Of a DNA stretch of 61,027 bases, positions 1,934 through 55,985 are shown piece after piece. A program made the translations under genes and the position numbers. Under the pieces are notes generated by a model. That model was not told where the DNA came from, did no database searches, and saw nothing but the letters and a program-made list of their open reading frames with translations. This DNA comes from a virus. How positions within the stretch are numbered: the stretch's first letter is position 1; the number at the start of each line of letters is the position of its first letter. The stretch lies in UHGV virus genome UHGV-1381707; one strand, given 5' to 3'.

Positions 1934-3001
1934 TCACCTCCACAGCTTAGTAGTAAAGACAGCAGTTTCAGATACCGAAACCCCAGCGTCGCATTTAATA
2001 GATTGGCTTATAACTTTCGCTTTAATATCGGTTATTCCAGCTCTTGTGTAATTAAGTCTAACGCAATCTCCTACCCTAACCGGACAATATCCGTGACTGT
2101 ATGACACGGTATATTCGAGAGTGGATAATTCTTTCAAGAGCTGTTCCGCATACTCGTCTATCTGCTTATTGGTAGGATCTCCAATTAAACTCGGATCGGT
2201 TTCTCGATAGACAATTTCCCGACCTCGATTAACTGTGGAAATCGGACTGTTACTATCGTCATTAACCACCCTCGCATAATACGGAGCTCCTCGACCAGAA
2301 GAATAAACAACTTCCACGACATTAGGAATCCCATACAAATCATGGTTCATGCTTATTTCCGGCAACAAAATCGAACTATTATTATCGTCGTAAGTCCAAA
2401 CAGGCTGCAAAGAAGCCGTATCCTGCTTCGGAGAGAAGAGAATACGGCCCAATTCGTCAAGATCGAACGTGTACTTTGCGTTTGCCAATAAATCTGTAAC
2501 AAATGTGATCCAAGTATCATTAGGGTCGGCTACAAAATCATCGTAAAGAGTTTTATCGCAATTAGCTTTTACTACCGGAGCCCTAACATTACTTTTAGTT
2601 AAAGTATATGCAGCGTCTAATATATTTTCATTTTTGGCTATGAAATACCCCAAAGGAGGAGGATTTTCTTTAAGCTCTAATAAAGGAGTATAGGCATCCA
2701 TTGACACTGATCTTACCATCCCATCGAAGCTAGACGAAGGGGTTTGAACCAGAAAAGTACCAAGTGGATGCCTATTTCTTACTCCATTTTGAATTGTTAT
2801 TAGGTAAATTCTTATATAGCATTCGCCAACGGATTCTACGATGTCAATACTCGCAGACCCGAGCGTGTCCGCATCAGAATCTCGGTTGATCGTGCATGAT
2901 TTGACAGTATCAAGCATCTTAACATCTTTCCATGTTCCTGGGTCGACTATATAATATTCAAAACTTTGTTGCATTGATGATAACCAATCAACCATGTTCA
3001 A
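1934..3001 (-). CDS. tail/baseplate structural protein (355 aa)
   Basis: Sits between the distal tail protein and the fiber gene. Its stop overlaps the RBS of the next gene. Function assigned from position only. Confidence 0.4.
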   Translation of the reverse strand: MNMVDWLSSMQQSFEYYIVDPGTWKDVKMLDTVKSCTINRDSDADTLGSASIDIVESVGECYIRIYLITIQNGVRNRHPLGTFLVQTPSSSFDGMVRSVSMDAYTPLLELKENPPPLGYFIAKNENILDAAYTLTKSNVRAPVVKANCDKTLYDDFVADPNDTWITFVTDLLANAKYTFDLDELGRILFSPKQDTASLQPVWTYDDNNSSILLPEISMNHDLYGIPNVVEVVYSSGRGAPYYARVVNDDSNSPISTVNRGREIVYRETDPSLIGDPTNKQIDEYAEQLLKELSTLEYTVSYSHGYCPVRVGDCVRLNYTRAGITDIKAKVISQSIKCDAGVSVSETAVFTTKLWR

Positions 3002-27600: not shown

Positions 27601-27701
27601 GGGTAACGACCGGATCTATATTTCATCCCATAATGCAGTATTACGTCAGAATCATCTTTTGACCCATAATAACCTAATATCTCTTCCGCAATAGGGTTCA
27701 T
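24669..27701 (-). CDS. two-barrel (double-psi beta-barrel) RNA polymerase homolog; YonO-like single-subunit RNAP candidate (1010 aa)
   Basis: Beta-prime-like barrel: LIRFPHGGTFEIP...LSGADFDGDTVMC, compared with bacterial beta-prime RAPTLH...NADFDGDQMA. Beta-like barrel: DGTHYIKGMAVYSDNMPDGVDVVFNTNKPKG, compared with beta GRHGNKGV...DMP...PVDIVLNPLGV. HTH-like segments near the N-terminus (LGPTEIGRRMGINESTVRLL) and the C-terminus (GFTIAEIAIKLGKSSSTISDYL). Confidence 0.55.
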   Translation of the reverse strand: MNPIAEEILGYYGSKDDSDVILHYGMKYRSGRYPYGSGEDPYQHGRDFLGRIEELKKQGWTETAENIKKEFGENVTLSDYRNEKKWCEYERRLRDVETAKRLRDKEGLGPTEIGRRMGINESTVRLLLNPDSAVKMKIAKDTADSLKKKVDESKYGMLDVGKGTELSLRVSKEMLNAALYGLEGDGYVVYTGGIPQPTNTNQQTIQKVLCKPGTPKSAIYDYDKIGTLDEYISRDGGKTFEKKFTYPESLDSKRLKINYAEDGGIEKDGIIELRRNVPDLSLGESRYSQVRIMVDGTHYIKGMAVYSDNMPDGVDVVFNTNKPKGTPALGPKENTVLKTIKKDPDNPFGSLIKDADQGGQYWYEDKKTGEKKLGLINKRADEGDWSDWKDALPAQFLSKQSLSLAKRQLNIAKESKQLEYDELCSIPNPVIKKHLLSKFADECDAAAVDLKAAALPGQKYHVITAFPSIKDNEVYAPNYDNGTKLALIRFPHGGTFEIPIVTVNNKLALPKKILGADAGDAIGLNNKVAERLSGADFDGDTVMCIPTNDSKGRVKIISTNPLKGLEGFDAKVEYGADPDKIKVDADGTVHCYRKGVEYPLMKKTDTEMGKISNLITDMTLDGGATEDEMARAVRHSMVVIDAEKHYLDYKASEVENGIKALKQKYQGKSNAGASTIISKSKGEVDVDKREGSPYINIKGNKGYDPSRPEGALIWKTARPEKLYKPDYTTDRKTGMRTIKTTDGKRIKYDPSNEEDRNKYSPVKRMDPDTGDVFYTNKDGSIKYARKTITQKSTRMAEADDAYDLLSTARHPMEIVYADYANSMKAMANRARKEMVNTPSLEKNKNAEKVYKADVDKLKADLNNAELNALRERAALRKANVSIANKQELALQETGKKMKAGDVRKVGQQAVTKYREEFGSLSRKERNIEITDRQWEAIQSGAVTKSLLERVLNNTDIDKLRERATPRVVKTLTPAQVNRAKAMQANGFTIAEIAIKLGKSSSTISDYLKKE

Positions 27702-27705
27702 GGTT

Positions 27706-28263
27706 TCATACCTCCTCGTAATCTACTTTTTCTAGCAATTTATCAAGGCGAATGATTTGGTCCATGACAGGAGCAATATCTTCTGCAGTCGGGTTATGAT
27801 ATAGAATTTCATCATTTTGATAAATTCGAAGTTCCATATCAATATCTTTCGGTTTTACTTTATATTCCAAACAAAAAAGAGCAGCGTATATTTCAAGCTG
27901 CTCCATCTTTGCCGGTATTTTTCCACTTTTTAAATCATGGATTCTTAAAAAATTATTTCTAAATGATATAGCATCTGCAGTGCCAAAAAATCGATCAGAA
28001 TAATATAAGACCACTTCAGTATTCATCCTGTAACCGATAGCATCGTTCACATAAGAATAAATGGTTTTCTTAGACCGTGGCTGCTTAATTCCCAAATCAA
28101 TGGTAGTCTTTGCCCATTGATGCAAAACGGTCCCCATTTCAGCAGCTTTTTTATTACTGTAAACTTCTAGAGCTTTCTGGTCATCATATCTAAGCCAACT
28201 AGGTTGACTCGGACTAAATGGCGCATGCAAGCCTTCAAGATTTCTATGTTGGTTGAATTGCAT
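27706..28263 (-). CDS. PD-(D/E)xK nuclease superfamily protein (RecB/Cas4-like motifs)
   Basis: GTADAISF...LRIHDLKSGK...QLEIYAALF fits nuclease motifs II/III and the QxxxY motif. Confidence 0.4.
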   Translation of the reverse strand: MQFNQHRNLEGLHAPFSPSQPSWLRYDDQKALEVYSNKKAAEMGTVLHQWAKTTIDLGIKQPRSKKTIYSYVNDAIGYRMNTEVVLYYSDRFFGTADAISFRNNFLRIHDLKSGKIPAKMEQLEIYAALFCLEYKVKPKDIDMELRIYQNDEILYHNPTAEDIAPVMDQIIRLDKLLEKVDYEEV

Positions 28264-29146: not shown

Positions 29147-29629
29147 TTATTTTGCGATGTCCATAATATCTACTAATTCAGACACCGAGCATTCCAAAGC
29201 CCTAGCTATTTTCAAAACGTTGTAACCTCTCGGACTTGCTTCTCCATTTAGATACTTACTTAATTGCGGTTGGGTTATACCAGTTAATTTCGATAGGTCA
29301 GTCTGAGTCATCCCTTTAATATTAAGACGTCTTTTTAATTTTCTAGCGAATTCATATCTCCATTCTGTTTCAGTCACCCAAGAATTGAATACATAGCTCG
29401 GAATCATTTGCCATTTTTTATCAACATAATCATATATCATTCTAGATCCGTCTTTTAATTTTATTGTTATTTCCATTTGTCCACTCGGGTACCAATCAGC
29501 AATATCTCTCATAACCCAAGGAACCATAGTTCTAAATTCGTCAAATATTTTCTGATAAAACTCCGATCCTATCACAATCGTATCTCCTTTCGAAATCGAA
29601 CATAATATAGTCTCTGGCCAAAAACCCAC
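29147..29629 (-). CDS. DNA-binding protein with C-terminal XRE-type helix-turn-helix
   Basis: C-terminus MTQTDLSKLTGITQPQLSKYLNG...LKIARALECSVSELV. N-terminal domain unknown. Sits directly downstream of the iteron array. Confidence 0.6.
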   Translation of the reverse strand: MGFWPETILCSISKGDTIVIGSEFYQKIFDEFRTMVPWVMRDIADWYPSGQMEITIKLKDGSRMIYDYVDKKWQMIPSYVFNSWVTETEWRYEFARKLKRRLNIKGMTQTDLSKLTGITQPQLSKYLNGEASPRGYNVLKIARALECSVSELVDIMDIAK

Positions 29630-31891: not shown

Positions 31892-32149
31892 TTATAATTT
31901 CTCCATTCGATTTTTAAATTGTTCTATTTGTTCTTCAAAATTTCTTTGTATATCTCCTCCGATATCATAATTCACCATTTCTTCGATGACCCTGAAACTC
32001 ATGGTGTTTACAATGGGGTGGTAGCCTATACAATTACCTTTAACATAATAGAAACAACCGATAGAACTTTCTATTCCATATTTAGTCACTTCATTAATTC
32101 TTTGTGTATGTCCGTCTCTAGTCACAATCGTCAAGTAGAACATTTCCAA
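31892..32149 (-). CDS. hypothetical protein (85 aa)
   Basis: ORF. Confidence 0.35.
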   Translation of the reverse strand: MEMFYLTIVTRDGHTQRINEVTKYGIESSIGCFYYVKGNCIGYHPIVNTMSFRVIEEMVNYDIGGDIQRNFEEQIEQFKNRMEKL

Positions 32150-32633
32150 CCGCCTTTCCGGTGATTAATTCGCTATAAGGTAGCTCTTCAATCCAAACAC
32201 AAAAGTCCCGCCACTCATCAAGTTTGTGAGTTTTGCGAGACTTATAAATGTTGGCCAGGACTTCGTAATTGAGCATCACCGTTCGTCTTTGGTTGTAGCT
32301 GCTCGGAAGAAGCTGAATCATCTGCCACCAGTATTTTTTGTCTTTGGTTTCGAGATATTTGTTTCTATAATGATTTAACGTATCAAGCATAATCTTTTTG
32401 ATAACAAAACCTGACGAACACGCCACGTGCTCTGTATCATTATTTATTGTGGAATCATCATCGATTAAATGCTCACACGAAAAATCCTCCAGCGTAAATT
32501 CTTTCTCATGAATCTTATGCATCGTGCTGCAAGAATTCGCAACAGTTCCGACCTTGTACGTATCGAATTCCTTCCCATTAATGGACCATCTTTTACTCAC
32601 TAAATATAGTGAGGACACCATTTCGGTTTTCAT
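32118..32633 (-). CDS. ThyX-like (flavin-dependent thymidylate synthase family) protein, C-terminal half
   Basis: QMIQLLPSSYNQRRTVMLNYEVLANIYKSR...THKLDEWRDFCVWI, compared with ThyX [42 protein letters not shown]. The RHR motif was not found. Confidence 0.4.
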   Translation of the reverse strand: MKTEMVSSLYLVSKRWSINGKEFDTYKVGTVANSCSTMHKIHEKEFTLEDFSCEHLIDDDSTINNDTEHVACSSGFVIKKIMLDTLNHYRNKYLETKDKKYWWQMIQLLPSSYNQRRTVMLNYEVLANIYKSRKTHKLDEWRDFCVWIEELPYSELITGKAVGNVLLDDCD

Positions 32634-33020: not shown

Positions 33021-33332
33021 TTACCAATACAAAGGAGCAGTAATATCCACATATACCACGATCATCCGCATGAACTTACGATGGTCCGTACCGGCGTTGC
33101 GCAGCCGCATCATGAGGTCGAAGTCGTTTGGGCCGATATAATAGGTTTTGTGATCGTTGCATTCTTTCCTATGTTTTGCCGGTTCGCAAAACCCATCTCT
33201 ATCAATGATTCCGCAAGTGCCACAGTCTACAGCATCATAGCTATCACTCTTCTCCCAAGAGTTCATCGGATTCCGCATCCCACGAATCGCATGCTCCCAG
33301 CCCAGGACCTCATAGTTTTCGAACTTGATCAT
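33021..33332 (-). CDS. ThyX-like protein, N-terminal half
   Basis: Start MIKFENYEV at 33332 after GAAAGGAG. LMMRLRNAGTDHRKFMRMIVVYVDITAPLYW, compared with ThyX [29 protein letters not shown]. The ORF stops exactly where ThyX would continue with RQWFRHR. Confidence 0.35.
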   Translation of the reverse strand: MIKFENYEVLGWEHAIRGMRNPMNSWEKSDSYDAVDCGTCGIIDRDGFCEPAKHRKECNDHKTYYIGPNDFDLMMRLRNAGTDHRKFMRMIVVYVDITAPLYW

Positions 33333-33363
33333 TTTTACTCTCCTTTCAACAATAACTCCATAA

Positions 33364-33657
33364 TCACATTTTTTTAAACATGTCCGGATTATCTTTAATA
33401 ACCATGTGTAAAGCATTGGCGAGTTCGTCAATCAATTTTTCATCATGATTCACATGCCCAAGATGATCAAATATGGCGTGCGTTAGTTCATGCAGTAAAA
33501 CCACTTCCATTCTCTCTTGTGCCGCCGGAACAATTCGGATCTCCAAGTTCATGTAATCGATCTCGCCAGAACAATTAAGCTTCCCCAAATCCAATATCGT
33601 AGTCTGCTCGATTCGATATGTTTTGCCTCCGATTTTTACGGTTTTAGGAATACGCAT
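33364..33657 (-). CDS. HEXXH-motif protein, ImmA/IrrE-like metallopeptidase candidate (97 aa)
   Basis: VLLHELTHAIFDHLGH motif. Confidence 0.3.
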   Translation of the reverse strand: MRIPKTVKIGGKTYRIEQTTILDLGKLNCSGEIDYMNLEIRIVPAAQERMEVVLLHELTHAIFDHLGHVNHDEKLIDELANALHMVIKDNPDMFKKM

Positions 33658-35023: not shown

Positions 35024-35335
35024 TTAATCAAAATCTTCTAGTTCGTCCGGAACGAAATAAGAAGTGCTATTGCTATTCAACTCTTCAATATGTCTGTCCA
35101 ATTTTTCTACTGCCGAGGTTAACATGGTGTATAAAAAGTAAGAATGGTTGCACCGATCATTTTTACGAAACGTGCTCTTTATACCGGTATTTCCCTTTTT
35201 AATAACCATGTGTAAAGAATGACCTTCGTCGTTATAAAAATCTATATCGTACCCTTCGTCGACAAGCTTTATAAGTTCATCTTCGAAACTCATAAAGGCT
35301 CTCCTTTCAATCCCACTTTGTAAATTTACGTTCAT
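35024..35335 (-). CDS. hypothetical protein (103 aa)
   Basis: ORF. Confidence 0.35.
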   Translation of the reverse strand: MNVNLQSGIERRAFMSFEDELIKLVDEGYDIDFYNDEGHSLHMVIKKGNTGIKSTFRKNDRCNHSYFLYTMLTSAVEKLDRHIEELNSNSTSYFVPDELEDFD

Positions 35336-36524
35336 TGAATTGCTTCTTTTCTCTCAAAGCTTTACCAATTGCCAAATCAATTCCGCTGCGAGATTTTAAA
35401 TGATAGTAATATAAATCTGTGTATGGCGTATTTAGTCGATCGATTCGCCCTGAAGCTTGCTGCATAACTTTGTAGCTATAGTTTTGAGAAAAGAAGACAA
35501 TCGTGTCTGTTCTGACACAGTTCCATCCTTCCGCTCCGGCAGTGTATTGCACGAGATATACCCATCTCTTTCCTTCAGGTATTGGCTGATGTCGATGACC
35601 ATTCCATTCTGCGATTTCCGTTTTTTCTCCATAATAAATCTCCTTCAAAATATCAAGTTCGTAATCAAAGTTGTAAAATATGATCATTTTAGGATGCTTT
35701 TCAAATAACTCCAGTAAAGCCACCTGCCTGGACTCATCTTCGTTCACAATCCTTCGAAGAATATAACAAAGTCCGCTCGCTTGCTGGATGGGTTCGTTTT
35801 TATAGGGGTCCCAACGATTGCGCATAGCCTCCTTATACTTTGAAATATCATAGTTGCAATACACGTCCTCGTGATGAGAGACGGTCAATCGTTTGAAATC
35901 CATATCGACCAAAATGCTGTCCCTCAATCGAATGAGTTTCCCAGTCCCCACAAACCGATCGATCTTCGGGTACTTAGTAAACCGAGAATATATAACATGC
36001 TCTCGAGTAAACTCTGTCTTGTTCCTATAGAACCCATTCGCCACGAACACCGGAATATAATCCTGCCAAGTGTCTCCTGGCGTTGCTGATAACAATATCC
36101 AGTCATTTTTCCGAGCAATGTTGAGGAACGCTTTCACCCAAGTTCCGCTGCCTACCACCCTCTGTTCGTCAAATATAAAGAACGCGCCATGAACTTCTTT
36201 ATACTTTTTAATGTTATTCCAGCTATCGACTACCACTTTGTTTTTGTAAAAATTCACTTCCGGATTTTTTGACAAAAGAAAAGGAGCTAATTCTCCCTCC
36301 CATTCCAAAGTATCACGCTTACGAGCAGTCGTGATAATGTACAAATCTTTAGGGTGCTTCATTTTTATGTAATTTTTAGTGCCTAAAACGCCTCCTTGCT
36401 CTTTGTAATAATAAGCAAGTGAGGTCCGAGATTTCCCAGACCCCACTCCGCCGCAAAGAATACATCCGTTTTTCATTCTGTCTACTGCATCTAATTGATA
36501 ATCATACAAACTGATTCCAGACAT
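35307..36524 (-). CDS. SF2 DNA helicase (DEAD/SNF2-like)
   Basis: DYQLDAV, Walker A CGGVGSGKS, IFDEQ (motif II), LLSATPG (motif III), QASGRIDR (motif VI). Confidence 0.6.
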   Translation of the reverse strand: MSGISLYDYQLDAVDRMKNGCILCGGVGSGKSRTSLAYYYKEQGGVLGTKNYIKMKHPKDLYIITTARKRDTLEWEGELAPFLLSKNPEVNFYKNKVVVDSWNNIKKYKEVHGAFFIFDEQRVVGSGTWVKAFLNIARKNDWILLSATPGDTWQDYIPVFVANGFYRNKTEFTREHVIYSRFTKYPKIDRFVGTGKLIRLRDSILVDMDFKRLTVSHHEDVYCNYDISKYKEAMRNRWDPYKNEPIQQASGLCYILRRIVNEDESRQVALLELFEKHPKMIIFYNFDYELDILKEIYYGEKTEIAEWNGHRHQPIPEGKRWVYLVQYTAGAEGWNCVRTDTIVFFSQNYSYKVMQQASGRIDRLNTPYTDLYYYHLKSRSGIDLAIGKALREKKQFNERKFTKWD

Positions 36525-38359: not shown

Positions 38360-38848
38360 TTACTCCTCCTCATATTCTTCAGCTGAATATCTTTCAGCAA
38401 ACCGATCTACTTGCTGAGTTACATAGATACTCTGGAGATATGCCGTGCGACCGGACTTGCCGTTCACGTCCCAATCATAAGGCCTGATGTCCAGATCAAC
38501 GCTAAGAATATCAATATGGTCAAGACAATCAATACTTTCTTCGTCCAGCTTATTCAACGCGGAACCGGATTTCAGATAAATAGTCGGTCCACGGTCGTTG
38601 AACTTAACCTTAACCGGAAGATGCATAAACGGAAGATCGCCGTCCTCACGAGGGGGTTTAATCTTCACATTCCAGCCAGCTTCGACAAGAGCATCAGCCA
38701 CTTCCTGATTATCGATAAGGACCGAGAAGTTTCTATCTCCTTCTCGATTAAATTTGGAGCCAAGTCCGGCAAAGTTGCGATAAATAATACGAGCGTCATC
38801 AATCTGAAGAATACCTCTAGGTGCGAAAGTTACGTGCATAATTGTCAA
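38360..38848 (-). CDS. hypothetical protein directly downstream of the polymerase gene (162 aa); possible replication accessory or DNA-binding protein
   Basis: Assigned from position. Acidic C-terminus (EEYEEE), as seen in many single-strand-binding proteins. Confidence 0.3.
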   Translation of the reverse strand: MTIMHVTFAPRGILQIDDARIIYRNFAGLGSKFNREGDRNFSVLIDNQEVADALVEAGWNVKIKPPREDGDLPFMHLPVKVKFNDRGPTIYLKSGSALNKLDEESIDCLDHIDILSVDLDIRPYDWDVNGKSGRTAYLQSIYVTQQVDRFAERYSAEEYEEE

Positions 38849-38876: not shown

Positions 38877-41800
38877 TTATCTAACATCAAATGGCATGCC
38901 ATCTTCCCATGGCAAAATATCATTTTCTCTTGGTCTCATAGGGATATAAGGATCATCCGAAACGAACCATTCATAATCACCGTACTTACCTATCGTTTCG
39001 ACCGCATCGTTAACGAGCTTGTCATAATAAGAACGGTCGATGTTGGCTTCTTTACCGAGTGTTTTTACCATTTCGGATTCAAGCCAACGATAACCTTTGG
39101 CTCCGGTAGCAGAGGAATACTTAACGTTTCCTTCTTTGTCTTTACCTTCACGAAGAAGTTCGCCGCCTCCGCAGCCCGGCTTAATAGGACAGAACAAACC
39201 GACCTTGCCTACAAAATGATAGTTGTGTTCGTCTTCTCCAAGATTATCATTCATATCTAAATATAAAGCCGTACTTACACTCTTCGTTTCGCACATATCA
39301 CCGAACTCAATCGGTTCCTTGCTAAAGAGCTTTTTGAACACATACGGAATCTGGAATTGGGTTCCCGTGGCAGTCCATTCCCCGGCATGCTTACCGTCCT
39401 TATACTTAGCAATGTAGACCGCATCATTAACGAGACACATCCTGTCATACGTCGCCTCATGCTCGAACGTGTAACCATACTGTTTGCCATATTCCATGAC
39501 AAATTGAATAATCTCAGGAGTGGCATCTGGTATCTTGATCGAGTCGGTCTTAATATGAGCCACCGTGAATCCGCGCTTTTGAACCTCGTGCTTGAGATTA
39601 ATCATGAACAAAGCCCCACGCTTGGCCACGATATTATCCTTATTACGAGAATCATGGAACGGATTATCAAAGCTTGCTGATGTCAAACCATAAACCGAGT
39701 TAATGGCGATCTTCAGAGCCTGAGCCAAATCAGCAGCCGCTTCTTCGTCATCCAAGTATTTCGCCAAAGATCCGCCCAGCATTGTTCTAGCCGTATCAAA
39801 ATCCTTATGTTTGATTGCAATACGGGCATCTCGAATCTCCTGGAATCGTTTCGTATATGCCTCTCCAAAGAGCTGTTCGGCAATGATGCTTGCCGGATGC
39901 ATGGACGCAATATCAAGTAATGCAACATTTCCATACATACCCGGCTCGGCATACACGTAGCCGCCCTCTCCGACTTCCTCTCCTCGATACGTGGACTTCC
40001 CTGCTTCAAATTTGTAACCTGGGAATATAGGTCGTCCGCCACCATCAAATATCGTGTACTCGTCGCCATAGTTGCTGTAAACAACGTTATCTTCGGTGAT
40101 AGTCACACGATCAGCCCCGTCGACCATTTCGCCCATGTTGCGATAGTTGAATTGATCTTGAGGTTTGCGATTACTACCAAATATAATTCTCGTAGTGAGA
40201 GAGTTAGTAGTGTCGTTTACGCTCATCCCAGCAACGTCCGCCAGAATCTTTCGAGCCGTGAAGTCAGCTTTCCTGGCATTAAATACAGCTTCCGTCGCTA
40301 TAACATCGTTATCGCAATACTCCGCAACCTTTGTCCACATTTCTTCAGGAACAGGTTGATCCCAAGGAAGTCCTAACTCCTGATGATGGATTCCTAGGTC
40401 AATCTCAAACTTTTTAAGCGACTGCTTTAAACTAGAGAAGTCATAAACATCCGTATATGAAATATTGTAAGCTTCTCCAAAGAAAGCTCCTCGATTTCCG
40501 CTGATTATTTTTTGCGACAAATCATAAAGCTGCTCATTCGTATACCCGATTAGCCGACCGTATAAAATATGATTATCGTATCGACGACAGTTGAAGCCCA
40601 CTAATCTGAATCTTAGTAATTCCTCGATTTCGGATGGCGTAGGGTTGATCATTCTAACAACCGGTTTTCCTTCCCCTTCGACTTTCCAGTTAACCAATAA
40701 CAGATTAGGAAACACCTCGACATCGTAAAATATCAACGCTGCATCGTCATTTTGAACGAATTCAGACGCCTCGTCAGACTTGAATTGCATTTTATTTACT
40801 AGTTTGATGCAATAGGCCGATTGGTTAGTGCTGCTTGCTGCGAAAGCTAATACAGCATTTCTCATGTCGGTAACGTCATATTTTAATCCATTGGCATGGG
40901 CATCCTCGAGTATCTTGTAAATGAAATCGATACTGCATTTAGTGCTAGAGTGATACTCCTTATTCAAATTCTTTTTGATGGCCGTTCTTAGTGATTTTTC
41001 ATTTTTTAAACCATCGAAATTTATCACCTTTTCCTCTCCTTTCAATGGCAATCCAGAACTAATAGTTGCAATCGGCAGGTCGTTGCATTTTGTAAGTTTC
41101 CTTCTCAGCGAACTTTTACCTGTGAATACTTTGATTTCGATATGGTCGCCATAAACTCTGCTGAGCTTGGTAACATCCCCATCATAAATATAATGAAGAT
41201 GCACCCCCGCTCCGCTCTTGCTCAACTCCGCATATGTTTCCGGCCATTTGCTTGCCTCCTCAACGTTTTTCTTGAAACATTTATTTCCGTTTTCATCCGG
41301 AATATCAAAGTCTATAACAATATGGTTTTTAGGAACTTTGACATAATGAATCTGAGAAGTGTCAAGGTCGGACAATTTAGTCGTTACATCCACCCATTTT
41401 TTAGATGGGGTTTCATTGGACGTAGCATATTGAGCCGGACAGTCTGCGCATTCTTTGTCAAATATCGACTTCCTTTTGCTAAATTTTATTAGTGGCAATT
41501 CCTCCTTTTTCTCTTTAACGTCGACCATATTAGTATCAAATTTTTCAGTTCTGAATCCCAAATAGTAGCTGCGTATTCTAGAACCATCTTCGAGACTAAA
41601 TCGCTCTTTATAATCCCGGAAGTAGTTTTTCAATTCCTCTTTGAAAATCCTTTGAGAAAATGGATAACCAACTTTTGCATCGTCGCAATAAGTTTTGTAC
41701 ATCTCCCAGGCAGCCTTAAGAGTCGTTCCATCTTCTTTTTTAAATACATGAAACGAATCGACTATAAAGTTATAGAAATCATTAGATGCCCCTAGCATTG

Positions 41801-42833
41801 TCACTGGAATATAATCGTCATAATAACCAGGATCGCTAAGGAATACCTCTTTGCAATGATTCGCAATGGCCCCAAGCTCGAACGAAACTTGTTTGACGGC
41901 AGTCTTATACTCTTTTGGGCTCAATTTATTTCCGGAAGGAGATACGTCAATTAATCTTCGAAGAAGACCTGATTTGGCATCTGTTATTTTTACCGGCTTA
42001 TTTGTACCCATGAATAAGAAGCATTTGAACCTGCTAGAATAAGTTGATTTAAACTTTTCATTAACCGTCATCAACTCGTGTGACACGAGACTATTAAGTC
42101 TCGTATTGTCCTCGATTTTTGACAAGTCACCATCATGCTGAATCGCTACAAGAGGGTTAGATTTAAACGCCTCCAATGCAAAAGAGTTACTAGACGATCC
42201 CAATGCTTTAGCATCAAAGACCGAGTAGTAACCCTCGAATAATTGCTGTATGATGTTTAAAATCGTTGATTTACCTGTACCAGCAGCACCATACAGAACC
42301 ATGAATTTCTGAATGCGCTTTGATTCTCCGGATACAATTGATCCGATGGCCCACTCTATTTTGCGCCTTTCTTCTTCGGAATATAAAGTGGAAATAAGCT
42401 TGTCGTAAGCAGGGGTATCGCCAGAAATTAATGGATAACTCAACCTCTTGCTAGCATAATCTTTCTTATTAGTCTCAGTGTTAGAAAATATAAGTTTTTC
42501 ATCGAGCATAGAGAAGGAGTCTCGCATTTGTTTTTGACAATACTTATGCCATCGGTCAATCATTCCAGATTCGGCATCCCACATGTGAAGAACTTTAAGC
42601 TTTGAATCGAATTTATTTTTATTTTCCTCCGCGTATTTCTCAAGTTCCCTATCTATAATAGCCAGAGCTTCTTGTTCATCAGTAGACCATAGTCCGCGCT
42701 CTTCGACCCAAATAGCATAGAAGTCTCCACCTCGAATCATGAGATCCGAACTTTTTTTGATTATAAACTTTGGATAAACTTCTACGTCTCCACGATTAGT
42801 TCTACGTGTTGCGACAATCAAAAAATCGATCAT
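38877..42833 (-). CDS. replication fusion protein: SF3/D5-like helicase NTPase, AEP primase-polymerase motifs and family-B DNA polymerase with 3'-5' exonuclease (1318 aa)
   Basis: Walker A LYGAAGTGKS. AEP-like VIDFDIPDENG and SGAGVHLHY. Exonuclease I FYDVEVFPN. PolB motif A DIASMHPASII, motif B KIAINSVYG, motif C HIKTDSI. Confidence 0.65.
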   Translation of the reverse strand: MIDFLIVATRRTNRGDVEVYPKFIIKKSSDLMIRGGDFYAIWVEERGLWSTDEQEALAIIDRELEKYAEENKNKFDSKLKVLHMWDAESGMIDRWHKYCQKQMRDSFSMLDEKLIFSNTETNKKDYASKRLSYPLISGDTPAYDKLISTLYSEEERRKIEWAIGSIVSGESKRIQKFMVLYGAAGTGKSTILNIIQQLFEGYYSVFDAKALGSSSNSFALEAFKSNPLVAIQHDGDLSKIEDNTRLNSLVSHELMTVNEKFKSTYSSRFKCFLFMGTNKPVKITDAKSGLLRRLIDVSPSGNKLSPKEYKTAVKQVSFELGAIANHCKEVFLSDPGYYDDYIPVTMLGASNDFYNFIVDSFHVFKKEDGTTLKAAWEMYKTYCDDAKVGYPFSQRIFKEELKNYFRDYKERFSLEDGSRIRSYYLGFRTEKFDTNMVDVKEKKEELPLIKFSKRKSIFDKECADCPAQYATSNETPSKKWVDVTTKLSDLDTSQIHYVKVPKNHIVIDFDIPDENGNKCFKKNVEEASKWPETYAELSKSGAGVHLHYIYDGDVTKLSRVYGDHIEIKVFTGKSSLRRKLTKCNDLPIATISSGLPLKGEEKVINFDGLKNEKSLRTAIKKNLNKEYHSSTKCSIDFIYKILEDAHANGLKYDVTDMRNAVLAFAASSTNQSAYCIKLVNKMQFKSDEASEFVQNDDAALIFYDVEVFPNLLLVNWKVEGEGKPVVRMINPTPSEIEELLRFRLVGFNCRRYDNHILYGRLIGYTNEQLYDLSQKIISGNRGAFFGEAYNISYTDVYDFSSLKQSLKKFEIDLGIHHQELGLPWDQPVPEEMWTKVAEYCDNDVIATEAVFNARKADFTARKILADVAGMSVNDTTNSLTTRIIFGSNRKPQDQFNYRNMGEMVDGADRVTITEDNVVYSNYGDEYTIFDGGGRPIFPGYKFEAGKSTYRGEEVGEGGYVYAEPGMYGNVALLDIASMHPASIIAEQLFGEAYTKRFQEIRDARIAIKHKDFDTARTMLGGSLAKYLDDEEAAADLAQALKIAINSVYGLTSASFDNPFHDSRNKDNIVAKRGALFMINLKHEVQKRGFTVAHIKTDSIKIPDATPEIIQFVMEYGKQYGYTFEHEATYDRMCLVNDAVYIAKYKDGKHAGEWTATGTQFQIPYVFKKLFSKEPIEFGDMCETKSVSTALYLDMNDNLGEDEHNYHFVGKVGLFCPIKPGCGGGELLREGKDKEGNVKYSSATGAKGYRWLESEMVKTLGKEANIDRSYYDKLVNDAVETIGKYGDYEWFVSDDPYIPMRPRENDILPWEDGMPFDVR

Positions 42834-44470: not shown

Positions 44471-45400
44471 TCAGATTAAATCCAAAATATTGCCATCAAC
44501 ATTGAAATCGAGAAGGATGACTCTTTCATATCCGTTAACAAAGTCCCTGGCATTCGGTCGGTTTACGTCGAAAATACCAAAATCAACAAAATTATCGCCA
44601 ACCGGATGTGCTTCGTCATAAATCCAACCCACACATTGACCAGCTTTTGTTCTCATGGCACCAAGCATGTCGTACACCTCATTCAAGAACAAATGACCTT
44701 TCGATTTAAGTAATTCATTGGCGTAGTTTTGCTGCTGAATCAGAAAGAATTTTGACACTTCCGGATCTTTATCCCACCCTGCATTTCCATCGTCAAAGAA
44801 TATGGAGTACGGACTATAACTATTAGGATCAGCCACGCCAATAGTCTGTTTTGTAACCTTCTCTTTTCCTTTTTCGTCTACGGAAACCTCTTCGATTTCT
44901 TTGGCTTTGATGTTGTACTTAAGCTCGCGATCCAATTCTTTTCCAAACCGCTCGATTACTCGACCTCTATATTCTTTAAACCCTTTATCAACCGTCGCAT
45001 ACGCCGCTGCTAATGCCACATTTCTTTGACGAATGATATTATGAGATGCAAGGATACATCCGATAGACGCCAAACCAAGGATAACAGAGGGAGCATACAG
45101 TTTAGCAAGACTGACGGCAGTTTTTGTATATACGATTGCCAGGTCTTTCTTGCTGTCTTGCTCTGTGTATCCTTCCTGCTTATCGGATTTCTCCATCATT
45201 TCATGAATTGTATCGACGGCGTCTTTCGTTTCTTCTAAAATGCTACTAACTTTCGTAGTAGCAACACAGGCCATAACAGCACTTACAGCTACTCCAGTAA
45301 CGCCTGCCACTATTAAAATTTCGGGACTATGCTTTTTAAACTTGAATCCAACACGACTAAATGTTCTCGTGAAGGAATTCGTGATTTCTCCTTTTTTCAT
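44471..45400 (-). CDS. two-TM membrane protein, paralog family copy A (309 aa)
   Basis: Shares N-terminal TM pair, central xAAAYATVDKGFKEYRGRV and C-terminal ...GW..D... segments with 48388-49182 and 49481-50239. Confidence 0.45.
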   Translation of the reverse strand: MKKGEITNSFTRTFSRVGFKFKKHSPEILIVAGVTGVAVSAVMACVATTKVSSILEETKDAVDTIHEMMEKSDKQEGYTEQDSKKDLAIVYTKTAVSLAKLYAPSVILGLASIGCILASHNIIRQRNVALAAAYATVDKGFKEYRGRVIERFGKELDRELKYNIKAKEIEEVSVDEKGKEKVTKQTIGVADPNSYSPYSIFFDDGNAGWDKDPEVSKFFLIQQQNYANELLKSKGHLFLNEVYDMLGAMRTKAGQCVGWIYDEAHPVGDNFVDFGIFDVNRPNARDFVNGYERVILLDFNVDGNILDLI

Positions 45401-45418: not shown

Positions 45419-45826
45419 TTAATTTGTTTTTAGTGTGTATGCAAAACCTATACTTCCACCTAATATAGAGCTTATAATCACAAACGGACTTTTAAATGCA
45501 CAAGTCGCTGCTGCGCTTATCCCTACCAATACGGCGGTCGGCAAAAATGCCGTAATACTTTTTACGATACACTGAGTAGTAATGATCTGAATATCGTTCT
45601 CGGCGTCCTCTTGGGAATACTTAGACTCCGGAATATTCTCGTCGGCAAGAACTGTTTCCACATCATTGATATGATCTTCATACTCTTTTTTAACTTCATC
45701 GACCTTAACAACTGCTTTGTTAACACTCACTGCTGTCGCCGCAAAAGCAGTAGCCGACGATGCGACTATTCCTATCGTTTTAGCATGACTCTTAACAAAT
45801 CCTACAATGTTTGAAATTTTACTCAT
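45419..45826 (-). CDS. membrane protein (135 aa)
   Basis: Two or three hydrophobic helices. Confidence 0.35.
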   Translation of the reverse strand: MSKISNIVGFVKSHAKTIGIVASSATAFAATAVSVNKAVVKVDEVKKEYEDHINDVETVLADENIPESKYSQEDAENDIQIITTQCIVKSITAFLPTAVLVGISAAATCAFKSPFVIISSILGGSIGFAYTLKTN

Positions 45827-48387: not shown

Positions 48388-49182
48388 TCATCGATCGTAT
48401 TCATAAAATGGTGCATTTTCATGCGCTACCACTATACACGGTCTCCCGTCATCGGCTATTTGCGAACCTATACGAATTTTAATTCGTCTGTCAGCATTCC
48501 ATCCAATGTCGTCGCCAACGTCAGGTAAACGATTCAACCCTAGTTCATCGTAAAATTCATTTAACGATACATACCCACACATGTCATGCAATATTTGAGC
48601 ATTTAATTCATTTTCAGCTTTTTTTATTTTATCGATATCGGATTCAAAATATCTATCAGACAATAAATCGTAGCATAGCGTACTACCCCTTTTGGTCACG
48701 ATAACTTCACTTTTACTAACTGGATTTTTATCGATATGATCTTTATCGATTTTCTCCTTAATAACTTGTTCTTTTTTCTCGCCGAGGGTCTCAACCACTT
48801 TGTCTCGATACTCTGTTAAAGCCGTTTCGGAAAGTTTATAGGCCGTTGCCAGAGCTGCCGTTCGTTTCGCATGAACTGAACCAGCTCCGATTAGACATGC
48901 GATCGATACGGTCCCAGTTACAACTGCTGGAATATAACATTTCCAAGTAGCTTTAACAGTCTCAATCGGAGTTAAAGAAACGTCTTCGTTCTGATCAGAT
49001 GTCTCTTTCTTTAAATCCCTTTCGACCTCAAGCATTCGCATCGCTTTCGGAGTTGCTGTCACAGCAAGAACTGTCGTAGTGATCATCCCCGCAATGCCAA
49101 TTCCGGTAAGAATTTCAGGACTTCGCTTAGCCATTGCGGTTTGAACATTTTTGACCATTTTTGATAGATTCGGTGCACCCAT
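48388..49182 (-). CDS. two-TM membrane protein, paralog family copy B (264 aa)
   Basis: SPEILTGIGIAGMITTTVLAVTATPKA and ALATAYKLSETALTEYRDKV align with copies A and C. Confidence 0.45.
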   Translation of the reverse strand: MGAPNLSKMVKNVQTAMAKRSPEILTGIGIAGMITTTVLAVTATPKAMRMLEVERDLKKETSDQNEDVSLTPIETVKATWKCYIPAVVTGTVSIACLIGAGSVHAKRTAALATAYKLSETALTEYRDKVVETLGEKKEQVIKEKIDKDHIDKNPVSKSEVIVTKRGSTLCYDLLSDRYFESDIDKIKKAENELNAQILHDMCGYVSLNEFYDELGLNRLPDVGDDIGWNADRRIKIRIGSQIADDGRPCIVVAHENAPFYEYDR

Positions 49183-49480: not shown

Positions 49481-50239
49481 TTAATACTCATCGAATTCTG
49501 GAAACGGCTCTGTCATTCGAATTATCGTGCATTCTAATCCGTCTTCCATTACCACTTTTTCATGAGCGAAGTCGATCCAAGCATCCCAATACATATCATG
49601 CAATGCCGGCGAAGACCATCCAAGATAATCACCATAATCGACTCTTGGAATGCCTAAGAATTCGTAGAATTCATTCAAAAATGCTGCTCCGCCAACAGTA
49701 ACTTCTTTATTAAGTTCGTATTCGGCATTTAGAACAGACTCCATAGTTGATCTAAAATATCTTTCAGAAAACTCGTCATAAAATAATCGTTTTCCATCGG
49801 ATTCATCGTCGATCACTTCTTTTTCATCGTAATTATCTTTTGCCATTTCGGCTCGTACCTGCCCGTCGACTTCTTCTCCATATAATTCTTCAACTTTTTT
49901 CTTATACTCTTTATAAGAATTGTCAACCAAAGCATATGCGCTCATTAAGGCTGCCTGATGACGTTTGTTTAATATATTTGCGCCAAATATACAAGCTATC
50001 GTCGACGTTCCAATTAGAATAGCTGGAATATAAGCAGGGCCTGCTGTTTTTACAACTTCTAATTTTGTAAGTGCTTCTCCTTTTTCTTCCTTAGCAGCGT
50101 CTAATAACTTCAAAGCTTTTGGCGTAGCTTTCACAGCCATAACCGTAGTGGCTACTACTCCCGTTGCTCCTGCTACGGTTAAAATTGTTGATGCATTTCT
50201 TTTCATAAATTTTTTTGAATGAACTAGCAAATTATTCAT
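49481..50239 (-). CDS. two-TM membrane protein, paralog family copy C
   Basis: Likely start MNNLLVHSKK at 50239 after GAAAGGTGAGAG. ASTILTVAGATGVVATTVMAVKATPKA and AALMSAYALVDNSYKEYKKKV align with copies A and B. Confidence 0.45.
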   Translation of the reverse strand: MNNLLVHSKKFMKRNASTILTVAGATGVVATTVMAVKATPKALKLLDAAKEEKGEALTKLEVVKTAGPAYIPAILIGTSTIACIFGANILNKRHQAALMSAYALVDNSYKEYKKKVEELYGEEVDGQVRAEMAKDNYDEKEVIDDESDGKRLFYDEFSERYFRSTMESVLNAEYELNKEVTVGGAAFLNEFYEFLGIPRVDYGDYLGWSSPALHDMYWDAWIDFAHEKVVMEDGLECTIIRMTEPFPEFDEY

Positions 50240-50349
50240 GTTTCTCTCACCTTTCGAGTTGGGATAAAAATAAAAGAGAATCATGCCCCTGGGAATCGAA
50301 CCCAGTCTATTGATATAATCAATCGCGTACCGTTCGCGAATCATGTTTC

Positions 50350-50381
50350 TCTCATAATACAGCATGTAATTTTCGCGAAAA
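50350..50381 (-). promoter_or_regulatory. copy of the conserved promoter-like element, followed by a ~110-nt leader
   Basis: Minus strand reads TTTTCGCGAAAATTACATGCTGTATTATGAGAG. The leader holds a second TTCGCGAA and a T-arm-like CTGGGTTCGATTCCCAG. Confidence 0.45.
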
Positions 50382-50406
50382 CAAAAAGGAAACCCCATGC
50401 AGGGGC

Positions 50407-53898: not shown

Positions 53899-54297
53899 AT
53901 GCTGATGTCATTCGGTGAAAGATTAAAACAGCGGCGACTGAAACTTAATATATCCGCTGGCGAATTAGCGAGTTTAATCGGTAAAAACAGAGCGACAATA
54001 TATCGATATGAAAAAGGAGACATTGGAAACATTCCTGTCGACATAATCGATCCGTTAGCGGAAGCTCTTGATACGACCCCAGAATATCTAATGGGGTGGA
54101 CTGATTCCGAAGAAGTTGGGACTAGAATCGAACAAGGTAAAAAGACGACCATTTATGTAGCTATACAAGTATCAGAAGCTAAACAGATGGAAAAATGGTT
54201 CAAGGAACTAGGCAGAGTAACATTAACTGATGAAGAATTCGAAAAAATAATTGAGTATGGAAAATTTCTGTTATATATGAGAAACGATGACGAATGA
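53899..54297 (+). CDS. XRE-family helix-turn-helix repressor (cI-like)
   Basis: ERLKQRRLKLNISAGELASLIGKNRATIYRYEKGD...IDPLAEALDTTPEYLMGW is a classic HTH_3 motif. Located upstream of the integrase and divergent from the early operon. Confidence 0.7.
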   Translation: MLMSFGERLKQRRLKLNISAGELASLIGKNRATIYRYEKGDIGNIPVDIIDPLAEALDTTPEYLMGWTDSEEVGTRIEQGKKTTIYVAIQVSEAKQMEKWFKELGRVTLTDEEFEKIIEYGKFLLYMRNDDE

Positions 54298-54410
54298 TGT
54301 AGTGCTAAGATTGCTTACATAGTAAAGTAAGTGGCATTAAAGGAGGTGAGTACAATGTAGTCGCCTAATTAATTCGCGTATATCACCAAAACAATCGGAG
54401 GAGAAAAGTC

Positions 54411-55985
54411 ATGACAGTATTTGAAATGAATGACGCGATTAATGATGCATTCACTGGAAAGATGGACAAATATGCGATTTATTTGCGTAAGTCCCGTGCT
54501 GACATTGAAGCCGAAAAGTTGGGCGAGGGCGAAACTTTAACCCGCCACAAAATGATTCTAACGGAACTAGCAGCACGAAAGGGTTTTTACATTGAAAAGA
54601 TTTATCAAGAAATCGTGTCAGGTGAAACAATCGAAGCGCGTGAGGAAATCCAAAAACTAATTAACGATTGCTATGCAGGGAAATATCGCGGGATTCTTGT
54701 AATCGACATCACAAGGCTGTCCCGTGGTAATCAGGGCGATGCACAAACAATCCTAGATTGCCTGAAGTTCGCAAATAATAACAACGGCGTGTTAGTAATA
54801 ACGCCAACTAAAACATACGATGTGGCACACAATCACGACGACGAAGAATACATGGAATTTGAATTGTTCATGTCACGTCGCGAATACAAGATGATTCGCA
54901 AGCGTATGGAACGCGGAAAACTTCAAGCTGTAGTCGAGGGAAATTACATTAGTTCATCTCGCCCGTATGGTTACAACATATTAAAGACTAAAACGGGTAG
55001 AACGCTGATCCCAAATGATGAAGAAGCTCCCGTGGTAAAGCAAATATTCGAATGGACTATAAAGAATAATTCCACGCCAGGCAAAATCGCTAGAAGATTG
55101 ACTGCGATGGGCGTTCCGACATACACGGGAATGCCCGAATGGTCCGACGAAACTATAAGAAGTATACTTCAAAATCCGGTTTATACAGGAAAAGTAAGAT
55201 GGAATAACAGAATGGCTGTGAAACGATTAGTTGATGGAGAACTGGTGAAAAGTCGCCCTCGCTGGAACCACAACGAACACTATATAGAAGTTGACGGTAA
55301 GCACAAACAATATGCCTTAATCGATGACGAAACATTCAAAAAAGCAGGACAAAGGTTTCATAGTGATAAAACGAGGGCTGGGCTTAAATTGGTGAACCCT
55401 CTTGCAGGAATTCTATGTTGTGCAAAATGTGGACGACCTATGATGTATATGCCATATGTAAACAATCCAACACCGCCAAGACTTGCACATAGGCATTCAC
55501 AAACGTGCAAAGTTAAGTCTGCAATAGCCAGTGACGTAATCGAAGCGGTAGTGCATGGTTTAAAGCTGTATATAGAAGATTTTGAAATGAAAATTGATGA
55601 AATGCCCGAAGTTGACGAAAATGCGATTGCGGACCAAATAGACGCCCTACAAAAAGAAATAAAAAAGATAAAAAAGAAGCTGTCGAAACTGTTCGATGCA
55701 TGGGAAAATGATGACATTACAGACAATGAATTTGTTCAGCGTAAAGCTGTCAATAATGCTCGTATAGACGCAATAAAAAATGAGATCGAAGAACTTGAAA
55801 ACACTATCCCTGAAAAAGAAGAACATGAAGATACTATAATGAAGCTGTCGGATGCGCTCGACGCGCTGCTCGACGAAGAACTCGAAGCAAGTGTTAAAAA
55901 CACATATTTGAAAGAGATTGTAAGTAAAATAGAGTTCAGTCGCGAAAACAATAAAGAATTTATATTGGACATAATCCTGAAGTAA
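54411..55985 (+). CDS. int: large serine recombinase (phage integrase)
   Basis: N-terminal resolvase catalytic region (YLRKSRAD with Ser; VIDITRLSRG). Recombinase domain. Zinc ribbon CCAKCGRPM...HRHSQTCK. C-terminal coiled-coil. 524 aa. Confidence 0.85.
   Translation: MTVFEMNDAINDAFTGKMDKYAIYLRKSRADIEAEKLGEGETLTRHKMILTELAARKGFYIEKIYQEIVSGETIEAREEIQKLINDCYAGKYRGILVIDITRLSRGNQGDAQTILDCLKFANNNNGVLVITPTKTYDVAHNHDDEEYMEFELFMSRREYKMIRKRMERGKLQAVVEGNYISSSRPYGYNILKTKTGRTLIPNDEEAPVVKQIFEWTIKNNSTPGKIARRLTAMGVPTYTGMPEWSDETIRSILQNPVYTGKVRWNNRMAVKRLVDGELVKSRPRWNHNEHYIEVDGKHKQYALIDDETFKKAGQRFHSDKTRAGLKLVNPLAGILCCAKCGRPMMYMPYVNNPTPPRLAHRHSQTCKVKSAIASDVIEAVVHGLKLYIEDFEMKIDEMPEVDENAIADQIDALQKEIKKIKKKLSKLFDAWENDDITDNEFVQRKAVNNARIDAIKNEIEELENTIPEKEEHEDTIMKLSDALDALLDEELEASVKNTYLKEIVSKIEFSRENNKEFILDIILK

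Follow-up and report, generated by a model that had tools for sequence, protein, structure and literature searches.

The 61,027-nucleotide genome of the virus UHGV-1381707 (below, the window) contains a gene on the minus strand, at positions 38877-42833, that very probably encodes a replicase of the HelPrimPolB type, orthologous to GP55 of Lactococcus phage 1706 and carried by an uncultivated temperate gut phage. According to our sequence comparisons, a helicase, an RNA primase, a proofreading exonuclease and a DNA polymerase would be joined in one polypeptide of 1318 amino acids (aa).

Proteins of this kind have a published history, which covers the helicase-primase-polymerase architecture as well as its place in evolution and its biochemistry; none of these is new here. 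The protein gp55 of phage 1706 was described in 2016 as a fusion of a superfamily 3 (SF3) helicase, an archaeo-eukaryotic primase (AEP) and a DNA polymerase of family B (PolB) (Kazlauskas, Krupovic and Venclovas, 2016; PMC4889955). The polymerase group was later named HelPrimPolB and placed, as a divergent member of the EpsilonN-like clade, in the primer-requiring main PolB cluster, apart from the protein-primed and primer-independent enzymes (pPolB and piPolB); its motif C and KxY are divergent, and it is prevalent in metagenomes (Kazlauskas et al., 2020; PMC7544198). GP55 (1317 aa) has since been purified, and four activities were found in the one protein (Zhang et al., NAR 2025; PMC12205980). 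Its helicase depends on UTP or dTTP, is lost in the mutant K189A and is atypical in being a dimer and weak without the polymerase domain. The RNA primase is abolished by D509A, favours the site 5'-CCAAC-3' and initiates with GTP; only RNA primers are made by the AEP domain, with no extension when given dNTPs, and priming needs a new alpha-helical domain (aHD) in which Y655 and F667 are essential. DNA polymerase activity is lost in D949A and the 3'-5' exonuclease in D712A/E714A. The enzyme carries out strand displacement and de novo replication of ssM13, is mainly dimeric by size-exclusion chromatography with multi-angle light scattering, and is capable of priming and polymerising in trans. The same study reports more than 1000 GP55 homologues, mostly in human-associated phages, and asserts homology of the AEP domain to NrSPol from structure comparison (PMC12205980).

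The window gene is one open reading frame (ORF) with an ATG start, 1318 codons and a stop. Its minus-strand translation runs without interruption, the plus-strand translation of the same interval contains many stops, and the ATG overlaps the stop of an upstream 75-aa gene in an ATGA arrangement. A first-pass annotation, made from the letters and an ORF list, had given the same single ORF without naming a strand; the ORF listing and the translation bear it out, and every motif it quoted was located in the translation in the order given. The gene and its parts are as follows.

38877..42833, minus strand: whole gene, probable HelPrimPolB / GP55-like four-in-one replicase, 1318 aa plus stop
41514..42833, minus strand: residues 1-440, D5_N-like region and SF3 (D5/P4-type) helicase ATPase with a probable C-terminal winged helix (~aa 365-444)
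42267-42290, minus strand: Walker A GAAGTGKS, aa 182-189 (K188 corresponds to GP55 K189)
41034..41471, minus strand: residues ~455-600, predicted AEP (PriS-like) primase catalytic domain
41304-41318, minus strand: AEP motif I VIDFD, aa 506-510 (D510 corresponds to GP55 D509)
41190-41216, minus strand: AEP motif II SGAGVHLHY, aa 540-548
aa 566: E566, candidate acidic residue of AEP motif III
40764..41033, minus strand: residues ~601-690, predicted aHD, a family-specific primase accessory domain (Y652 and F664 correspond to GP55 Y655 and F667)
40134..40763, minus strand: residues ~691-900, PolB 3'-5' exonuclease domain
aa 702-708: ExoI FYDVEVF (D704/E706 correspond to GP55 D712/E714)
aa 746-755: ExoII GFNCRRYDNH (N748/Y752/D753)
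aa 839-844: ExoIII YCDNDV (Y839/D843)
38880..40133, minus strand: residues 901-1318, PolB polymerase domain with a thumb region of divergent sequence at its C-terminus
40026..40124, minus strand: 33-residue insertion relative to GP55 and the actinophage homologues (aa 904-936), after the exonuclease domain and before motif A
aa 974-984: motif A DIASMHPASII (D974 corresponds to GP55 D949)
aa 1041-1049: motif B KIAINSVYG
aa 1094-1099: motif C IKTDSI (KTDS at 1095-1098)

When GP55 was taken from NC_010576 and aligned with the window protein, the two proved colinear, with 41% BLASTP identity over aa 8-1286 (E=0; 41-42% overall), nearly the same length (1317 versus 1318 aa) and the same order of SF3 helicase, PriS-like AEP, aHD, exonuclease and PolB. 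Every GP55 residue found essential by mutagenesis is retained in this pairwise alignment, at the positions given above. The AEP block is the most similar part, with 58% identity; the exonuclease comes next with 51%, then the aHD with 47%. The first-pass proposal of a single polypeptide combining an SF3 helicase, an AEP primase and a proofreading PolB is borne out by this colinearity and by the conserved essential residues, and its picture of a self-contained replicase agrees, by homology, with the GP55 biochemistry (PMC12205980).

The entire fusion is an existing family of phage proteins according to its profile matches. In a PHROG scan, residues 2-1299 aligned to positions 1-1293 of the 1304 in phrog_4210 ('DNA polymerase') with E=0. 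A tblastn search of 50,697 deposited phage genomes matched 345 records, 252 of which cover at least 80% of the replicase. Among annotated relatives, that of Faecalibacterium phage FP_oengus comes first (61% identity, annotated 'helicase/polymerase'), followed by proteins of Arthrobacter, Gordonia, Curtobacterium and Streptomyces phages (47-53%, annotated 'DNA primase/polymerase'); all of these are full-length and colinear. The Lactococcus 1706-like phages encode relatives with 38-41% identity, annotated as DNA polymerase or hypothetical protein, and in Enterococcus, Pseudomonas and Listeria phages the match is confined to the PolB part. At least 8000 clusters of a metagenomic protein collection were matched, the best 120 all at full length with 76-100% identity; public records label the gut-metagenome protein 'hypothetical protein' or 'DUF5906 domain-containing protein'. 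The first-pass annotation had called such a protein unusual for a temperate siphovirus, a view which these phage genomes and clusters contradict: the fusion is common, and FP_oengus likewise has an integrase gene. At the DNA level there is no close sequenced relative, as megablast of the gene against the 50,697 phage records returned only a 192-bp match at 74%.

Conservation was counted over 111 diverse full-length representatives clustered at 50% identity. In the helicase, K188, N278 and R293 are invariant (111/111), R292 is kept in 110/111, and the Walker B position D234 is D or E in all 111. The AEP positions D508, D510, H545 and E566 do not vary in the set, nor do D704, E706, Y752, D753, Y839 and D843 of the exonuclease (N748 is present in 109/111) or D974, K1041 and D1097 of the polymerase (each 111/111). 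The aHD positions are slightly less strict, with Y652 in 105 and F664 in 106 of the 111. Relatives from three bacterial phyla, when aligned, likewise show the catalytic positions invariant or nearly so. The motifs are therefore not chance matches, given the full-length phrog_4210 alignment, the 252 phage proteins and the near-invariance of the catalytic residues.

One record of the family search deserves mention for its own sake. In Streptomyces phage Bing (MG757154.1, 36238-42875) the HelPrimPolB match falls into two pieces over 6.6 kb, with an 'AAA-ATPase' and three hypothetical genes annotated under it; possible explanations are an intein, insertion of a mobile element, or a replicase that is split by nature.

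The helicase region is the part most readily recognised by general domain models. Pfam DUF5906 matched at aa 180-293 (8e-14, 52.7 bits against a cutoff of 27.6), TIGR01613, the P4-family primase C-terminal domain, matched at aa 161-387 with 57.8 bits, below its cutoff of 108.7, and several 'DNA primase' PHROGs match within 40-436. A family profile of 101 sequences aligned aa 49-442 to residues 379-773 of the SaPI5 primase-helicase chain 7OLA, which comprise its D5_N, SF3 and C-terminal region, with E=8e-16, and also matched the NrS-1 helicase domain 6K9C (5e-6). A weak RFX5 winged-helix match at 365-444 hints at a winged-helix DNA-binding region. All SF3 signatures are present, namely Walker A, Walker B (D234), the sensor-1 asparagine N278 and the arginine finger R292/R293.

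The primase is supported at the level of motifs. An hhalign comparison of the 111-sequence profile with NrS-1 PrimPol (primase-polymerase) gave a probability of 76% (E 2e-5), aligning motifs I (DxD) and II (SxSGxGxH), and the DxD-to-H spacing is 35 residues in both proteins; a shallow nine-sequence AEP profile gave only 19% probability over 17 columns. The block also aligns to the AEP domain of 7OLA (residues 96-138), and weak matches to the primase families phrog_3022/695 lie at 473-600. Four helices are predicted at aa 612-681, where the aHD lies, in a low-confidence model. The AEP and aHD together occur in 467 representatives of a library of 50%-identity clusters; the best 150 of these are nearly all proteins of 1200-1500 aa with the module at ~450-700, so that it appears confined to the fusion. 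Where the first-pass annotation spoke of a 'primase-polymerase', the AEP domain is supported by motifs I and II and the NrS-1 alignment, and the PrimPol activity is not, considering that the AEP of GP55 makes RNA primers only. By analogy, we take the AEP domain of the window protein to be a primase rather than a PrimPol.

The polymerase region matched phrog_1252 (PolB) over aa 686-1148 with 4e-49. The family profile found Escherichia coli Pol II (1.5e-7), archaeal PolBs (8e-6 to 1e-3) and Pol alpha (5e-4), and the NCBIfam matches were to Pol II models, at sub-threshold scores. One of ten family members gave a weak match to DNA_pol_B_2 (3e-4).

Several observations weigh against the identification as a GP55-like enzyme. 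Pfam annotation, which had been suggested as a check in the first pass, was not decisive, since only DUF5906 scored above threshold and the AEP and PolB models stayed below it: Prim-Pol reached E=0.21 and 12.5 bits against 22.8, DNA_pol_B E=0.01-0.04, and none of the ten family members scanned matched an AEP model of Pfam. AlphaFold2 models were of low confidence, with a mean pLDDT (predicted local distance difference test) of 50.3 for residues 430-700 and 51.5 for residues 690-1318; Foldseek against the PDB returned nothing for the AEP part and, for the PolB part, one plausible match to Sulfolobus PolB1 (E 6e-3, template modelling score 0.25) beside RNase-H-like noise. The underlying alignments were shallow (26 close homologues at 67-96% identity), and the fold searches were given no weight. 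Because the structure models are uninformative, the AEP fold rests on the motif-level profile alignments together with homology to GP55. In two parts of the protein, the N-terminal/helicase part and the C-terminal thumb, identity to GP55 is moreover only 33-34%, and therefore NTP preference, oligomeric state and processivity may differ from those of GP55. Finally, the window protein has the 33-residue insertion and lacks C-terminal insertions of GP55: it has 17 extra residues of its own near the C-terminus, and GP55 has ~34 extra residues in the thumb.

The insertion at aa 904-936 is common to the gut-metagenome relatives, partial in FP_oengus and absent from the actinophage and Lactococcus proteins. 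The differences from GP55 recorded here, in the insertion, the C-terminus, the thumb and the temperate phage that carries the gene, leave the classification unchanged. The branch of gut phages that has the insertion and the strongly diverged helicase, probably temperate and infecting Bacteroidales, could nevertheless constitute a distinct functional subtype of the four-in-one replicase, although we regard this as rather unlikely; the branch could then differ from GP55 in the NTP use of its helicase, in its priming site, in processivity or in contact with a host factor through the insertion.

Less probable still is that the protein is a true family member whose modules have changed their function, so that the helicase would serve for binding or oligomerisation, or the whole protein for repair or recombination, and the host replisome would copy the genome. 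The helicase part is indeed among the most divergent from GP55, the GP55 helicase is itself atypical (dimeric, UTP/dTTP-dependent and weak without the polymerase domain), and the window phage encodes a separate superfamily 2 (SF2) helicase. Against this stand the invariant or near-invariant Walker A lysine, sensor-1 asparagine and arginine finger and the acidic residue always found at position 234, the scanned ORFs yielded no second DNA polymerase or primase, and the replicase gene lies in the same module as in lytic relatives. A HelPrimPolB-type replicase thus remains the preferred reading of the gene.

The first-pass annotation had also suggested a relation to the primer-independent PolBs of pipolins, and it may be asked whether the PolB domain primes on its own, with the AEP-like motifs vestigial or engaged, for example, in translesion repriming. 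Pipolin piPolB (Redrejo-Rodriguez et al., 2017) likewise combines a PolB with an active exonuclease and achieves de novo synthesis with one protein. Its hallmarks are TPR1 and TPR2, a motif C of the form SxTTDG, and KH-X8-KTRG in place of KxY (PMC5695915). The motif C of the window protein reads HIKTDS, with K1095 in place of the first aspartate; this KTDS in place of DTDS loosely recalls SxTTDG, the first motif-C aspartate of piPolB being replaced as well, and the parallel is only superficial. After motif C no canonical KxY was seen apart from KQY at aa 1117-1119, and KxY is divergent throughout the HelPrimPolB group (PMC7544198). Several points speak against primer independence. Neither KTRG nor TTDG occurs anywhere in the window protein, and the family-profile searches matched only primer-dependent PolBs, with no phi29-type or piPolB-type chain at E<=10. 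Motifs B and C are 48 residues apart, a spacing presumably closer to that of Pol II, judged by Pol II and phi29 numbering, and suggestive of no TPR2 insertion. The AEP catalytic residues are invariant in 111/111, which makes a vestigial domain unlikely. HelPrimPolB was placed in PolBmain, apart from pPolB and piPolB (Kazlauskas et al.; PMC7544198), and GP55 D509A, with an intact PolB, loses de novo synthesis (PMC12205980). Taking together the absent motifs, the profile results, the published clustering and the behaviour of the AEP-dead GP55, the piPolB link is not supported, and a primer-independent PolB domain is very improbable. Whereas piPolB primes with its own polymerase active site, the HelPrimPolB family primes with a separate AEP domain. 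An affinity to the protein-primed PolBs of phi29 and PRD1 was likewise considered and judged improbable: the profile searches showed no similarity to solved pPolBs, and a dedicated AEP primase is present. The window ends carry no direct terminal repeat, which would have marked a complete genome; no search was aimed at inverted terminal repeats or at a gene for a terminal protein.

Sequencing or assembly errors and missed frameshifts or stops sometimes yield very long multi-enzyme ORFs, and Pfam recognises a single domain only, but the idea that separate helicase-primase and polymerase genes were joined artificially is effectively refuted already and retains a negligible probability. At least nine independent contigs, from different metagenome samples, encode exactly this 1318-aa product, which excludes the splitting frameshift or stop that the first pass had named as fatal to its proposal. 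Colinear proteins of 1200-1450 aa occur in the 252 phage genomes, and clustering at 50% identity gives more than 100 representatives of this kind. Purified GP55, for its part, is one protein of 1317 aa that has all four activities.

If the window protein works as GP55 does, from which its enzymatic activities, nucleotide preference, primer-site specificity and oligomeric state are here deduced, replication may be pictured as follows. The N-terminal D5/P4-like SF3 ATPase (K188, N278, R292/R293) would unwind the duplex by NTP hydrolysis, for which the GP55 counterpart uses UTP or dTTP, and would also provide strand-displacement capacity. The AEP (D508/D510, H545 and probably E566), together with the four-helix aHD (Y652, F664), would make short RNA primers de novo on single-stranded DNA (ssDNA), which the C-terminal PolB (D974, K1041, D1097) would extend under proofreading by the 3'-5' exonuclease (D704/E706, D753, D843). 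As in GP55, the protein may form a dimer with activities in trans, so that one subunit may prime while the other extends. Three other phage proteins described below probably assist in replication and recombination: the ssDNA-binding/annealing protein, whose gene is adjacent, the SF2 helicase and the PD-(D/E)XK exonuclease. By analogy, replication independent of host DnaB, DnaG and Pol III is plausible. Among the ORFs scanned, many of them small and without annotation, no clamp, ligase, RNase H or primer-removal gene was recognised, and the host therefore presumably supplies ligase, primer removal and topoisomerases.

Compared with other named systems, the window protein shows no structural difference from the HelPrimPolB group, sharing its KTDS motif C, lack of a canonical KxY and metagenomic abundance; the clade placement is that of Kazlauskas et al. 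(PMC7544198). The canonical AEP-helicase primases (SaPI5 7OLA, NrS-1, poxvirus D5 and pRN1 ORF904) have a homologous SF3 module and AEP motifs I and II. Their order is reversed relative to the window protein, in which the helicase comes first, the AEP second and a complete PolB is appended, and their helix-bundle/PriL-type accessory domain is replaced in GP55-like proteins by the unrelated aHD. NrS-1 is moreover a primase-polymerase, in contrast to the AEP of GP55 with its RNA primers only. The same logic of fused replisome activities is seen in Pas55 of Actinoplanes phage phiAsp2, which joins an SF3 helicase to a DnaG primase and PolA, although its DnaG/TOPRIM primase and family A polymerase are not homologous to those of the window protein. 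T7 gp4 (DnaG primase and SF4 helicase) is likewise a fusion, but without a polymerase.

The window resembles a whole phage genome of ~61 kb, with structural genes for a large terminase, a portal, a prohead protease fused to a capsid-like sequence, a major tail protein and a 2367-aa tape-measure protein; no sheath protein was noticed among its annotated genes. The genes that bear on lifestyle and on replication are as follows.

53899-54297, plus strand: helix-turn-helix (HTH) repressor-like gene (phrog_8/4/3)
54411-55985, plus strand: large serine recombinase/integrase (phrog_95, 1.4e-91; Pfam Resolvase and Recombinase above cutoff, Zn_ribbon_recom weak and below cutoff)
38360..38848, minus strand: phage ssDNA-binding / single-strand-annealing protein, probable replication partner (Pfam PF24083, 1.6e-50; phrog_4787)
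35307..36524, minus strand: SF2 helicase, 405 aa, the second helicase of the replication/recombination module (phrog_62, 2.8e-64; Helicase_C 22.1 versus 23.5 bits, just below cutoff)
27706..28263, minus strand: PD-(D/E)XK-type exonuclease, 185 aa (phrog_3953, 1.9e-76; DUF2800 above and PDDEXK_1 below cutoff)

The ssDNA-binding gene lies directly downstream of the replicase, has 34% identity to orf66 of phage 1706 and occupies the same position in independent contigs. A helicase downstream of the replicase is found in phage 1706 (orf67) and in FP_oengus as well, so that both genes accompany the replicase in phage 1706 and in the window phage, and FP_oengus has its ssDNA-binding protein and helicase in the same place. 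The PD-(D/E)XK exonuclease is a likely recombination partner of the annealing protein.

Repressor and integrase (53899..55985) are the only sizeable plus-strand genes. The presence of a serine integrase beside a repressor, with tail genes and no noticed sheath, supports the temperate siphovirus of the first-pass annotation; of these two kinds of gene, just a putative repressor is listed in the first 50 kb of the 1706 record. No direct evidence of an integrated prophage was obtained, all contigs with the exact protein being shorter than 200 kb. The only hints at the host are that the same 90% cluster includes a partial protein of Coprobacter fastidiosus and that a relative occurs in a Dysgonamonadaceae metagenome-assembled genome. 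From its sequence, the phage may be described as an uncultivated temperate siphovirus-like gut phage whose host is probably in the Bacteroidales, and the host phylum then probably differs from that of phage 1706 (Bacteroidota versus Bacillota).

The preferred priming site of GP55, CCAAC, occurs 122 times in the window, 91 times on the plus strand, against 79 +/- 9 expected. As an enriched replication signal it was rejected, because permutation of codon order within genes removes the excess (72 sites versus 64 +/- 7); 46 of the 72 sites read in frame as GTT-GGN, a codon pair of the coding strand. The excess is thus a codon-usage effect, as it vanishes when codon usage is preserved.

A further gene of the window accompanies the replicase in other phages. 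The 1010-aa ORF at 24669-27701 (minus strand) matched phrog_4291 ('RNA-dependent RNA polymerase') with E=0 and contains GADFDGDTVM at aa 536, the DxDGD metal-binding loop of two-barrel RNA polymerases; it is predicted to be YonO-like and has HTH domains at aa ~100-127 and 969-1009. Such a gene occurs in 250 phage records, including 95 of Arthrobacter, 55 of Gordonia, 54 of Streptomyces and 13 of Lactococcus phages; these genus counts equal those of full-length HelPrimPolB, and in most public records its only label is 'helix-turn-helix DNA-binding protein'. That HelPrimPolB and the YonO-like gene go together has been noted before (bioRxiv 10.1101/842583).

Other features of the window are recorded here as observations. 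Upstream of the replicase lie four DUF6353 / phrog_2152 paralogues (44471-45400, 45419-45826, 48388-49182 and 49481-50398, all on the minus strand), one of which (135 aa) resembles a short N-terminal fragment. The genes at 32118-32633 and 33021-33431 (minus strand) match consecutive halves of phrog_6721 (profile positions 6-82 and 84-216) ~390 nt apart, and could be a split or interrupted gene or flank an insertion between the halves. The tape-measure protein (5967-13070, minus strand) contains a lysozyme/transglycosylase-like segment at aa ~438-517, and the next tail protein (988 aa; 2998-5964, minus strand) starts with a comparable segment, endolysin-like, at aa 2-60; the two segments may represent peptidoglycan hydrolase modules associated with the virion. 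Inside the early/replication region lies the gene for another regulator of the HTH repressor type, 160 aa long (29147-29629, minus strand; phrog_8/4/3), in addition to the one beside the integrase. Almost all genes lie on the minus strand, and GC skew on the plus strand is uniformly negative except at ~52-56 kb, where integrase and repressor lie.

The assignment corrects the tempting link to primer-independent PolBs and gives a functional annotation to a very abundant gut-metagenome protein of which Pfam sees only the ATPase core. Single-protein replicases are of some interest for primer-free DNA amplification, and diverse orthologues may merit screening; a distinct subtype in the gut-phage branch, if real, would possibly be useful for this purpose. 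For the family, the assignment indicates that the combination of a GP55-type replicase with a YonO-like RNA polymerase extends in range from phages of Actinobacteria and Firmicutes to temperate phages, probably of Bacteroidales.

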